From a virus: a stretch of DNA of 16,665 bases. Of the stretch, positions 2,997-6,876 are shown in pieces; the first letter of the stretch is position 1, and each line of letters begins with the position of its first letter. The stretch lies in UHGV virus genome UHGV-0077406; one strand, 5' to 3'. The notes beneath the pieces were generated by a model. It was not told where the DNA came from, ran no database searches, and was given only the letters and a program-made list of their open reading frames with translations. A program made the translations under genes and the position numbers.

Positions 2997-3380
2997 TCAC
3001 CTCGCCGTCAGTTGTTTTGATTTCCGGTAGCCTGCCGCGTAAATGGCTACGTTTGGAAGACATACACCAGTTTCTGGTTGCCTATGCCCAAACTCATTCG
3101 CGTACACAATGGCCGCTCTCTCCAGATTGCGTCTGTATTCTTTCTGTTGCCAGATCACGTCCTGTGCCATGAACTTAATTGGCTTAGCGTCTTCTATGCG
3201 CTCAGGCGTTTCGTGTTTACCTTTAGCCTGAATCTGTGCCAGACTGAGGGTAGGGCGGTGTAATACTTCTGAACTTATTGCTTCTTCGCGGGCCAGCACG
3301 CCGTTAGCTAATGCCTTTGCCTTTAAACGCTCACGACGACGAGAACGTGAATTGCCTTTGAACTGAGTTCTGCGTGTCAT
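2997..3380 (-). CDS. N: N-family transcription antiterminator (non-lambda specificity)
   Basis: First gene downstream of pL/nutL; AGGAGG RBS; N-terminal arginine-rich motif 'TRRTQFKGNSRSRRRERLKAKA'; 127 aa. Sequence differs from lambda N, so this gene lies outside the lambda-derived immunity segment. Confidence 0.7.
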   Translation of the reverse strand: MTRRTQFKGNSRSRRRERLKAKALANGVLAREEAISSEVLHRPTLSLAQIQAKGKHETPERIEDAKPIKFMAQDVIWQQKEYRRNLERAAIVYANEFGHRQPETGVCLPNVAIYAAGYRKSKQLTAR

Positions 3381-3545
3381 ATAGACCTCCTGATGAACTT
3401 TGGTGGTGTGGTAGGTGGGAGACCCATTTCGACCTGTTTCGGCCTACTTCAATTCGGCAATAGTCCCGCAGGCCTCGCCGCTTTACGTGCGACATATTCC
3501 CGTCCATGAACCCTTCACCACACCCCAAAGTTCACTTTGGTTATT

Positions 3546-3560
3546 GCGCTTTGTCAGCGC
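3546..3560 (-). promoter_or_regulatory. nutL boxB hairpin (P22-type GCGCUGACAAAGCGC)
   Basis: Minus-strand transcript reads GCGCTGACAAAGCGC, a 5-bp stem with GACAA loop, in the pL leader upstream of N; the same loop type recurs at nutR. Confidence 0.55.
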
Positions 3561-3628
3561 CGTAGATTCATATTCGAATCGTTGTATATTCACCGCCCTG
3601 GTGAGTAGTGCGTCCTGCTGATGTGTTT

Positions 3629-3691
3629 AGTATCACCGCCAGTGGTATTTATGTCAACACCGCTAGAGATAATTAATCACCGCAGATGGTT
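3629..3691 (-). promoter_or_regulatory. pL promoter with operators OL1 (3631-3647), OL2 (3655-3671), OL3 (3675-3691)
   Basis: Lambda operator sequences read directly: TATCACCGCCAGTGGTA, CAACACCGCTAGAGATA, AATCACCGCAGATGGTT. On the minus strand, -35 TTGACA (3652-3657) and -10 GATACT (3629-3634) are spaced as in lambda pL. Confidence 0.85.
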
Positions 3692-3833
3692 ATCTGTATG
3701 TTTTTTATATGAATTTATTTTTTGCAGGGGGCATTGTTTGGTAGGTGAGAGATCTGAATTGCTATGTTTAGTGAGTTGTATCTATTAATTTTCAAATAAA
3801 TACAATTGGTTATGTGTTTTTTTTGGGGGGGTA

Positions 3834-3862
3834 GGCAAAGAAAACCCGGCTCGGTGGCCGGG
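3834..3862 (-). terminator. Rho-independent terminator ending the cI-distal cassette
   Basis: Stem CCCGGC/GCCGGG (6 bp, 6-nt loop) followed on the minus strand by TTTTCTTTG, starting 8 nt after the stop of the 310-aa gene. Confidence 0.6.
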
Positions 3863-3869
3863 TGAGATA

Positions 3870-4802
3870 TTAAAGAACCGATTTAACAAGATGGTTTTTA
3901 CGGTACAGACCTATGCGATCATTGTGAATCTCAGTAGTCTCCACTAAAAGAGAAACAATCTGTCCGACCTTGTGTTTTTTTTGTATTAAATCTAGCATTT
4001 CAATCGGATAGGAAGCCTTTAAATGTTCACCACCAACATCAAGCTCCAGCTTCCCATATTTGGATAGAACGACCAGTTCGCCTGTAACCGTTTCAGTAAT
4101 GGGAGGGGATGAAATGGTTGATGTAAGTCTACTCACCAAGTACTTAATTTTATTGGAGTCAATAGTTGCCACCTTGGTGCCATTACTAAATGGACCGGTC
4201 CAACTTGCATCAAATGTTAAGTTGTGTTTATCGCATTCCTCTACGATTCTCTTAAGGCTTACAGTGGAATTGTATCCAATTTCAGCGACGTGATTCATGA
4301 AGTTGTTGTCGTCATCGCTTAACAACAAATCGAATATGCCTTTTACAGCCTTGCTGGGTACTGTTTCTACTAATTCTGCTATTCCTGTAGAGAAGGTGAC
4401 GCCCAATTTTGTAGACCCAGGGGATAAATCAGCCAGCCTGAGGTTTAAGGAGCTTTTCACGTCGTAGGGAACTTTTTTTGAGTCCTTGCCTGAGGCAATT
4501 TTGTGTGTTGCTCTTTGTATTAGCGCTGCAAGATTTGTTGAAATAGCCCCAAGCAGCTCTAAAGGAATAGAGCCAAAGTCAACCTCAGAGCCTTTCAGCC
4601 GCAGCTCAAAAAAATCGATAAGTGGGTGCCGACTATCTTGCTTTAATTTTTCGGCCTTCAAATCGCTCAGATGAGAATCCATGGAGCGATAAAGAAGCAT
4701 GTCAGCAAAGGACCTGGTTTTGTTTTGCTTCATTGCATCGACTTCTTTTTGAATGAAATCAATGCGTTTATCGCAATTTTTAAACATTGATTTATCATTC
4801 AT
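3870..4802 (-). CDS. Hypothetical 310-aa protein; second gene of the two-gene cassette in the rexAB-equivalent slot (candidate effector or sensor)
   Basis: Long AT-rich ORF; start at 4802 overlaps the stop of the upstream gene as ATGA; no TM segments and no catalytic motif I can recognise; unrelated to RexA or RexB as I recall them. Confidence 0.6.
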   Translation of the reverse strand: MNDKSMFKNCDKRIDFIQKEVDAMKQNKTRSFADMLLYRSMDSHLSDLKAEKLKQDSRHPLIDFFELRLKGSEVDFGSIPLELLGAISTNLAALIQRATHKIASGKDSKKVPYDVKSSLNLRLADLSPGSTKLGVTFSTGIAELVETVPSKAVKGIFDLLLSDDDNNFMNHVAEIGYNSTVSLKRIVEECDKHNLTFDASWTGPFSNGTKVATIDSNKIKYLVSRLTSTISSPPITETVTGELVVLSKYGKLELDVGGEHLKASYPIEMLDLIQKKHKVGQIVSLLVETTEIHNDRIGLYRKNHLVKSVL

Positions 4803-5427: not shown

Positions 5428-6141
5428 TCACCCAAACGTCTCTTCAGGCCACTGGCTAGCGATAACTTTCCCCACAACGGAACAACTCTCATTGCATGGG
5501 ATCATTGGGTACTGTGGGTTTAGTGGTTGTAAAAACACCTGACCGCTATCCCTGATCAGTTTCTTGAAGGTAAACTCATCACCTCCAAGTCTGGCTATGC
5601 AGAAATCACCTGGCTCAACAGCCTGCTCAGGGTCAACAAGAATTAACATTCCGTCAGGAAAGCTTGGCTTGTAGCCTGTTGGTGCGGTCATGGAATTACC
5701 TTCAACCTCAAGCCAGAATGCAGAATCACTGGCTTTTTTGGTTGTGCTTACCCATTTCTCCGCATCGCCTTTGGTAAAGGTTCTAAGCTCAGGCGAGAAC
5801 ATCCCGGCTTGAACATGAGAAAAAACAGGGTACTCATACTCACTTCTAAGTGACGGCTGCATACTAACCGCTTCATACATCTCGTAGATTTCTCTGGCGA
5901 TTGAAGGGCTAAATTCTTCAACGCTAACGTTGAGAATTTTTGCAAGCAATGCGGCGTTATAAGCATTTAATGCATTGATGCCATTAAATAAAGCACCAAC
6001 ACCTGACTGCCCCATCCCCATCTTGTCTGCGACAGATTCCTGGGATAAGCCAAGCTCATTTTTCTTTTTTTCATAAATAGCTTTAAGGCGACGTGCGTCC
6101 TCAAGCTGCTCTTGTGTTAACGGTTTCTTTTTTGCGCTCAT
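5428..6141 (-). CDS. cI: CI repressor (lambda immunity; LexA-like autocleaving C-terminal domain)
   Basis: 237-aa product is near-identical to lambda CI as I recall it ('[53 protein letters not shown]...'); divergently arranged from cro across OR. Confidence 0.95.
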
Positions 6142-6151
6142 GCATTAAATC

Positions 6152-6217
6152 TATCACCGCAAGGGATAAACTTCTAACACCGTGCGTGTTGACTATTTTA
6201 CCTCTAGCGGTGATAAT
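6152..6217 (+). promoter_or_regulatory. OR3 (6152-6168), OR2 (6175-6191), OR1 (6199-6215) with pR (-35 TTGACT 6189-6194, -10 GATAAT 6212-6217) and divergent pRM
   Basis: Lambda operator sequences read directly: TATCACCGCAAGGGATA, TAACACCGTGCGTGTTG, TACCTCTAGCGGTGATA (one mismatch to lambda OR1); promoter hexamers at lambda-like spacing. Confidence 0.9.
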
Positions 6218-6241
6218 GATTGCCTGTACTAAGGAGGTTGT

Positions 6242-6442
6242 ATGGAACAACGCATAACCCTGAAAGATTATGCAATACGCTTTGGGCAAACCAAGACGGC
6301 TAAAGATCTCGGCGTATATCAAAGCGCGATTAACAAGGCCATTCATGCAGGCCGAAAGATTTTTTTAACTATAAACGCTGATGGAAGCGTTTATGCGGAA
6401 GAAATAAAGCCCTTCCCAAGTAACAAAAAAACAACTGCATAA
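6242..6442 (+). CDS. cro: Cro repressor
   Basis: 66-aa product '[66 protein letters not shown]' is near-identical to lambda Cro; AAGGAGG RBS. Confidence 0.95.
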
Positions 6443-6450
6443 GTAACACC

Positions 6451-6514
6451 GCTCTTTTCACAATGGACATTCGTCCTACGTCGCTGACAAAGCGAGCCCC
6501 AAGATATCTGACCA
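6451..6514 (+). promoter_or_regulatory. nutR: boxA-like CGCTCTTTT (6451-6459) and boxB hairpin TCGCTGACAAAGCGA (6500-6514)
   Basis: Read directly between cro and cII; boxB is a 5-bp stem with the same GACAA loop as nutL. Confidence 0.6.
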
Positions 6515-6579
6515 ACTAAGGCCATATGCGTTTCCACGCATACCTTTCAACTAACTATTCACTATTGGAAAATTAACAA

Positions 6580-6876
6580 ATGACACAAGCAAGTTACAGC
6601 AAGCCAACACAGCGAGAAATTGATCGCGCAGAAACAGATTTACTCATCAACCTGTCAACGCTTACCCAGCGCGGTCTGGCAAAGATGATTGGCTGTCATG
6701 AATCGAAGATAAGCAGAACGGACTGGAGATTTATTGCTTCGGTCTTGTGTGCTTTTGGAATGGCATCAGACATCAGTCCGATTAGCAGGGCTTTTAAGTA
6801 TGCGCTTGATGAAATCACAAAGAAAAAATCCCCGGCTGCCACCGAGGATTTTAAGCAAATTGATATGCAATTCTGA
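6580..6876 (+). CDS. cII: CII-family transcriptional activator (divergent from lambda CII)
   Basis: Position after cro/nutR; C-terminus '[18 protein letters not shown]' parallels lambda CII 'KKRPAATERSEQIQMEF'. TTGC-N6-TTGC (CII site of a leftward pRE) lies on the opposite strand at 6589-6602, overlapping the start of the gene as in lambda. Confidence 0.7.
6819..6847 (-). terminator. Putative oop-like antisense terminator overlapping the 3' end of cII
   Basis: On the minus strand: stem CCTCGG/CCGGGG (6 bp with one G-U pair), 6-nt loop, then ATTTTTTCTTT; same location and orientation as the lambda oop RNA terminator. Confidence 0.45.

Follow-up and report, generated by a model that had tools for sequence, protein, structure and literature searches.

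The stretch analysed here, called the window throughout, is the 16,665-nucleotide (nt) sequence of UHGV virus genome UHGV-0077406, and the segment under study, positions 2997-6876, runs exactly from the stop codon of the antiterminator gene N to the stop codon of cII. Gene content was taken from the list of open reading frames (ORFs) and a Pfam scan of this segment (lengths in amino acids, aa; E, expect value):

2997-3380, minus strand: N-type antiterminator, 127 aa, Pfam N_peptide (E 3e-15)
3870-4802, minus strand: PDC-M63B-like protein in the rex slot, 310 aa, without a Pfam match
4799-5278, minus strand: PDC-M63A, DUF6932 protein, 159 aa, Pfam DUF6932 (E 1.7e-24)
5428-6141, minus strand: cI, LexA-like repressor of lambda type, 237 aa, HTH_3 and Peptidase_S24 domains
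6242-6442, plus strand: Cro of lambda type, 66 aa, Pfam Cro (E 8e-34)
6580-6876, plus strand: cII of HK97 type, 98 aa, Pfam Phage_CII (E 4e-33)

Sequence comparison leaves little doubt that the segment belongs to a lambdoid prophage, of which it forms the early-regulatory and immunity region, and that it is assembled from interchangeable modules. Judged by alignment, the set is a lambda-specificity immunity core, N, nutL and nutR of the H-19B/933W/HK97 type, a cII of HK97 type and a two-gene cassette in the slot that rexAB occupies in lambda.

Immunity core and recombination joints

The core closely follows lambda. cI is identical to lambda cI at 233 of 237 residues (differences T3A, K71N, R129K and S157Y) and Cro at 64 of 66 (M12I and V55I). 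All six 17-base-pair (bp) operators lie at lambda spacing and overlap pL, pR and pRM, with pL and pR at their expected places; three of the six are identical to their lambda counterparts and three carry one substitution each. The two promoters and the terminator listed here come from a pattern scan:

3629-3657, minus strand: pL promoter, TTGACA, 17-nt spacer, GATACT; position in agreement with the HK106 annotation
3631-3647: OL1, identical to lambda
3655-3671: OL2, one substitution against lambda, C-to-T on the plus strand
3675-3691: OL3, one substitution against lambda, T-to-A at the first position
3844-3863, minus strand: Timm-like intrinsic terminator; Timm is annotated at the same place in HK106
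6152-6168: OR3, identical to lambda
6175-6191: OR2, identical to lambda
6189-6217, plus strand: pR promoter, TTGACT, 17-nt spacer, GATAAT
6199-6215: OR1, one G-to-A change against lambda

The G-to-A change in OR1 is common to HK97, HK106 and the prophage of E. coli R18, and the OL2 change is the same central-position change as in the OR1 variant of the HK97 group.

Compared with the lambda immunity region as a whole, cI, Cro, the six operators, pL, pR and Timm are alike at 90-97% nucleotide identity, whereas the window has N, nutL, nutR and cII of a different type and lacks rexAB. N gives a weak local match to lambda N (18 of 49 identities, E 0.002), but is identical to H-19B N at 121 of 127 residues, including all of the first 46 and with them the arginine-rich motif (12-RSRRRER-18), and is 98% identical to the N proteins of HK97 and 933W. 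cII shows the same division, being identical at 98 of 98 residues to HK97 cII and at 90 of 98 to 933W cII, against 23 of 97 to lambda cII in a global alignment (35% over 88 residues by BLASTP). NCBIfam gave no match for N, cII or either cassette protein.

To locate the joints between these modules we ran blastn with positions 2700-7200 against reference phages, with the P22 comparison at E 1e-4. The best-fitting parents along the sequence were:

2742-2963: lambda and P22, 91-95% identity, orf28 region
2936-3621: 933W, 97.8%, N and nutL
3590-3863: lambda, 90.3%, pL, OL and Timm
3834-5454: mEpX1, 99.6%, two-gene cassette
5397-6456: lambda, 96.9%, cI, OR and cro
6435-6916: 933W, 94.4%, nutR, tR1 region and cII
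6884-7152: P22, 83.6%, DUF2740 ORF (orf48-like) and start of an O-like replication gene

Homology to HK97 extends over 2936-3860 at 95.0% and over 5432-6918 at 97.6%. Neighbouring segments overlap by 20-60 bp, and each crossover therefore falls within a patch shared by both parents, at the following joints:

2936-2963: distal joint of the N module; 933W/HK97 homology from 2936 onwards, lambda/P22-like orf28 region up to 2963
3590-3621: left joint, overlap of lambda and 933W homology at the 5' end of the pL transcript
3834-3863: left cassette joint, with the Timm terminator inside
5397-5454: right cassette joint, overlap of mEpX1 and lambda homology across the 3' end of cI
6435-6456: right joint, overlap of lambda and 933W homology from the cro stop codon into boxA

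Alignments over the left and right joints show the parent switching inside conserved patches, and the left one contains CATCAGCAGGACGC, which is invariant in lambda, P22, 933W and HK97. The distal joint follows from the match of the orf28 region to lambda and P22. A 28-aa acidic ORF (MEEEFEEFEEHPQDVMEQYQDYPYDYDY, about 2852-2938, minus strand) lies there, just downstream of N, and its DNA is 92% identical to the lambda orf28 region and 95% to that of P22.

The sequence-only reading of this DNA had described a mosaic in which lambda-type cI, cro and operators are flanked by an N and a cII unlike those of lambda, had placed joints close to the operators on both sides and had proposed alignment to known phages as the way to map them. 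The alignments agree on each point: a lambda-type core stands between a non-lambda N, nut sites and cII, and the parents switch at both of its flanks, within 3590-3621 on the left and 6435-6456 on the right. That reading was silent on the replacement of rexAB, which adds the two cassette joints. Recombination would have produced the mosaic by acting in short sequences common to lambdoid phages: the pL transcript start, the stretch between the stop codon of cro and boxA, the Timm terminator and the cI 3' end. Because each nut site falls a little beyond the edge of the immunity core, an exchange of immunity can leave the pairing of N with nut intact.

A two-gene cassette in the rex slot

Between cI and Timm, rexAB is replaced by a cassette (3870-5278) of two genes, here called A (the DUF6932 gene) and B (the PDC-M63B-like gene), with a 4-nt overlap between the stop of A and the start of B. 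Homology to lambda breaks off at 3863 and is picked up again at 5397; the cassette proteins show no sequence homology to RexA or RexB, and share with them their genomic position alone. Both match the PADLOC defence candidate PDC-M63AB (E 1.8e-41 for A and 7.5e-45 for B). The closest relative is found in phage mEpX1, whose gp41/gp42 cassette is 99.6% identical over 3834-5454 and occupies the same place downstream of the repressor, and whose cII is 96.5% identical; there, in contrast, the cassette lies beside a VT1-Sakai-type cI and a phi21-type N/nut set, not beside a lambda cI. More widely, the A/B pair with its 4-nt overlap is found again in prophages of Providencia and E. coli, immediately downstream of S24 repressors, and is present with the overlap kept in another Serratia element. 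In the representative library the B family accounts for 267 clusters at 50% identity, and almost all of these have a length of about 310 aa. The repressor-N interval is described as a highly mosaic site for accessory (moron) genes in a passage of PMC7067206 that cites Degnan 2007.

In protein A the nucleotidyltransferase motif W-x-D-G-S...D-x-D is invariant and a second motif, RSYWRGWFGF, is conserved. Its AlphaFold2 (AF2) model has high confidence (predicted local distance difference test score, pLDDT, 95.9), and a Foldseek search with it returned weak matches to minimal nucleotidyltransferases, MNT antitoxins among them (E ~3e-3, probability 0.92-0.93, TM-score ~0.3). For protein B (AF2 model, pLDDT 80.8) an oligonucleotide/oligosaccharide-binding (OB) fold is predicted in the C-terminal ~80 residues; the fold searches recognised this part alone and gave no whole-protein match, and Pfam run on 32 homologues of B yielded scattered chance matches only. 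A sequence search of the PDB returned nothing meaningful for either protein, and a literature search for DUF6932 found no papers.

A role in defence or exclusion is a hypothesis that follows from the position of the cassette, and addiction is a reasonable rival. Tentatively, the cassette may be a functional superinfection-exclusion system tied to the repressor and of an as yet uncharacterised kind, in which the OB-fold protein B would sense a nucleic-acid intermediate of the infecting phage, the nucleotidyltransferase A would act as effector or switch, and both would be expressed with cI as rexAB is in lambda. A search of the cI-cassette spacer for a promoter of the cassette's own found none. 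One promoter-like match inside gene A (4970-4998) was rejected, and is not evidence for a promoter because such sites are fewer in this region than in shuffled sequence (4 against a shuffle mean of 9.0). Two points speak against the exclusion role and the supposed mode of expression. In E. coli NILS69, defence was not measurably altered when PDC-M63AB was deleted (PMC12409345), and a weak terminator-like hairpin stands between the cI stop and the start of the DUF6932 gene (5321-5340, minus strand); the hairpin could limit read-through, so that transcription from pRM cannot be counted on to enter the cassette.

The pair might instead be an MNT-type toxin-antitoxin addiction module with no anti-phage function, the DUF6932 nucleotidyltransferase neutralising a toxic partner B. 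The best structural neighbours of A are indeed MNT antitoxins of HEPN-MNT systems (7ae2_B, 7ae9 and 8xeo), the two genes overlap as noted, and HK106 and mEp234 hold a hicAB toxin-antitoxin pair in the same slot. We nevertheless consider this role rather unlikely, as the weakness of those structural matches and the make-up of B, which has no HEPN domain and whose sole recognisable part is the C-terminal OB fold, argue against it.

Relatives, integrity and N-nut specificity

The arrangement is shared with several described phages. HK97 (NC_002167), HK106 and mEp234 agree with the window in the order and type of N, nutL, pL/OL, cI, OR, cro, nutR and cII (comparison records GenBank EF120460/EF120461, from the work of Degnan et al. 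2007 on wild phages with lambda immunity specificity). Alignments to these three span 60% of the query at 96-97% identity and fall into two pieces, and the gap between the pieces is exactly the rex slot, which holds gp48/gp49 in HK97 and hicAB plus one ORF in HK106 and mEp234, in place of the DUF6932/PDC-M63B pair of the window. The HK106 record EF120461 (2007) already annotates oL1-3, oR1-3, pL, pR, pRM, pRE, Timm and the boxA and boxB of nutL and nutR at equivalent positions. Many E. coli prophages share the N/lambda-core/cII arrangement, and the R18 prophage aligns collinearly along the entire segment (100%), at 97.1%. The sequence-only reading had named collinearity with a single known phage type, without breakpoints, as the finding that would count against its mosaic. 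Breakpoints relative to lambda are present, but the segment is collinear with HK97, HK106 and mEp234 save for the rex slot and with the R18 prophage throughout, and by that reading's own criterion the case is therefore weak as a discovery. The combination of this N/nut/cII set with lambda immunity is already known from the published record, and the observation is correct but ordinary.

The window also departs from the HK97 group. Its OL2 and OL3 substitutions are private, being absent from lambda, HK97, HK106 and R18, and residues 129 and 157 of cI (R129K and S157Y) differ from both lambda and HK97. These changes weigh against the scheme of working proposed below, as does nutL, which lacks a canonical boxA and offers the weak CGCACTACT as sole candidate. 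Another view is that this is a defective prophage, whose immunity and antitermination region has fallen into decay and can no longer act as a switch. The private operator substitutions fit such decay, the N gene of the collinear R18 prophage is annotated as a truncated pseudogene, and none of the complete E. coli genomes in the collection has the whole 16.7-kb window (best coverage 61%). The whole window was likewise found in no phage record searched (best phage coverage 53%). We regard decay as very unlikely, given that all six regulatory genes are full length and intact, that promoters, operators, both nut sites, the CII site and terminators are all present, and that cII matches HK97 cII at every residue.

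The nut sites of the segment are made up as follows:

3546-3560, minus strand: nutL boxB GCGCUGACAAAGCGC, 5-bp stem with GACAA loop, the same as the boxB annotated in HK106
3565-3580, minus strand: nutL spacer hairpin GAUUC-GAAUAU-GAAUC, found by folding; HK106 has the stem with a different loop
3604-3612, minus strand: putative nutL boxA, non-canonical and of low confidence, corresponding to the 'putative boxA' of HK106 record EF120461
6450-6458, plus strand: nutR boxA CGCTCTTTT, canonical, annotated at the same place in HK106
6465-6476, plus strand: nutR spacer hairpin GGAC-AUUC-GUCC, found by folding, identical in H-19B and 933W
6481-6495, plus strand: nutR boxB UCGCUGACAAAGCGA, 5-bp stem with GACAA loop

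The boxB 13-mer CGCTGACAAAGCG occurs exactly twice in the window and in 0 of 200 shuffles, and both copies lie on the transcribed strand, one downstream of pL and one downstream of cro. Where the lambda boxB loops are GAAAA and GAAGA, those of the window are GACAA. The nutL core is identical to that of H-19B, and the nutR core is identical save for one boxA base (CGCTCTTTT here, CGCTATTTT in H-19B and 933W). H-19B and 933W thus resemble the window in N and in both nut cores, spacer hairpins and GACAA boxB included, and in cII (89-90 of 98 residues identical), and differ in having their own repressors, Cro and operators instead of those of lambda. Such spacer dyads are said to be a feature of H-19B nut sites, and H-19B N reportedly needs neither boxA nor NusB. 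The published account of H-19B mentions two hairpins in nutR and gives the arginine-rich motif of its N as 12-RSRRRER-18, exactly that of the window; in it the mutations R3H, S11F, R15C, R15P and R18P abolish antitermination at H-19B nutR/tR1 (PMC3526286). Residues R3, S11, R15 and R18 are all present in the N of the window.

The sequence-only reading had called the boxB hairpins P22-type and predicted an N-nut specificity matched to a non-lambda N. The matching is supported by comparison among phages, in which nut type agrees with N type. The 13-mer is found at both nut positions in HK97, HK106, R18, 933W and H-19B, once in P22, and in neither lambda nor mEpX1; the motif of mEpX1 N is GTAKSRYKARRAELIAERR and neither boxB hairpin of that phage is of the GACAA type, a combination that we take to be of the phi21 type. 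As mEpX1 has this cassette and a similar cII but another N and boxB, nut type follows N type and not cII, cassette or immunity core. In the interval 1881-2557 of the mEpX1 record a Nun-like terminator gene is also annotated, adjoining the N gene.

The P22 label holds for the loops and not for the module. Both boxB loops are GACAA, and the nutL boxB is identical to that of P22 at 15 of 15 positions; at nutR the loop agrees with P22 and the closing base pair is different. The likeness to the P22 gene 24/boxB complex (PDB 1A4T) thus covers the GACAA pentaloop on a 5-bp stem and the nutL boxB, and extends to a common N pattern, F-x-G-N-x-x-x-R-R-x-E-R, and to the C-terminal tail of N. BLASTP, however, aligns N with gp24 over the C-terminal 33 residues only (64% identity), the central part of N is unrelated, and the motif His of P22 (RRHER) aligns with an Arg in the window (RRRER). 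Outside boxB the N and nut DNA has no homology to P22, blastn giving no alignment of P22 to N, nutL or nutR at E 1e-4, and the nut-site comparison found no spacer hairpins in P22. In the structure of the P22 N peptide bound to boxB, the looped-out C of the GACAA pentaloop touches two residues of the peptide, a His and an Arg (PMC12550061). On this comparison the module probably works like that of P22 at the peptide-RNA contact, yet does not belong to the P22 module; its sequence is that of the H-19B/933W/HK97 type. That it is a genuine P22-derived module, gained recently from a P22-like Salmonella phage and fully interchangeable with gene 24 and P22 nut, as the identical nutL boxB, the shared loops, the motif pattern and the tail might suggest, is scarcely credible in view of the unaligned P22 DNA, the unrelated middle of N, the missing spacer hairpins and a module 97.8% identical to 933W and near identical to H-19B, and we reject a recent transfer from P22.

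Proposed workings and wider context

Two further sites complete the regulatory set:

6589-6602, minus strand: CII-binding repeat TTGC-N6-TTGC in the -35 region of pRE, annotated in HK106
6825-6852, minus strand: oop-like terminator hairpin within the 3' end of cII, from the pattern scan, at a position analogous to that of the P22 oop terminator

With these parts in place, the H-19B-type N and the lambda-type core would be expected to operate together as follows. In the lysogen, CI would bind the lambda operators and provide immunity to lambda-immunity phages, and transcription from pRM would cover cI and probably run on across the cassette as far as Timm, just as in lambda it includes rexAB. 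Upon derepression pL and pR would fire and N would be made, and its arginine-rich motif would bind boxB, a hairpin with a GACAA loop, in the RNA newly transcribed from nutL and nutR. RNA polymerase carrying N would become termination-resistant and read through tL and tR1, and CII would then activate pRE. We infer antitermination because N and nutR are nearly identical to those of H-19B, a studied system.

Several features elsewhere in the window were recorded alongside. The Rfam gathering-threshold scan of the whole window matched only the cIII thermoregulator and two tRNAs, all outside 2997-6876, and found no RNA family within the segment. The first match, Lambda_thermo at 1981-2039 (minus strand; 88.5 bits against a gathering score of 50), points to a lambda/HK97-type cIII leader in the pL operon. 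The tRNAs, tRNA-Asn(GTT) and tRNA-Thr(TGT) at 16240-16395 (plus strand), directly follow a Q-family late antiterminator gene (15658-16176, plus strand). Shiga toxin (Stx) phages carry tRNA genes upstream of stx at the position after Q; no stx gene lies within the window.

In the replication module, a toprim primase/helicase of 968 aa (8016-10922, plus strand) contains a clean 342-aa intein-like insertion at 9129-10154 that splits the helicase Walker A motif (GVNGHGK/T, the slash marking the split), and its exteins are 99% identical to a 626-aa insertion-free allele of phage mEp043. The insertion starts with Ala-Cys, ends in THN followed by Thr and contains a LAGLIDADG domain, which suggests an intein without the usual N-terminal nucleophile, possibly of class 3. 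Of the matching sequences, 9 of 18 phage records, including Min27, phi24B and Stx2a_F451, and 79 of 290 E. coli genomes carry the insertion whole. The helicase gene is closely followed by an ORF at 11005-11616 (plus strand) with HNH_3 and AP2 domains, which is homing-endonuclease-like and may be a second selfish element in the replication module.

The region carries little weight as a discovery. Its value for annotation is that the prophage is best entered as lambda-immune and its N as H-19B type, and its rex slot holds a PDC-M63AB candidate that could be studied within a well-understood regulatory context. As a whole it is a textbook case of modular evolution in lambdoid phages, in which the crossovers that exchange immunity cores fall in short conserved patches just within the nut sites, leaving N matched to its RNA targets.

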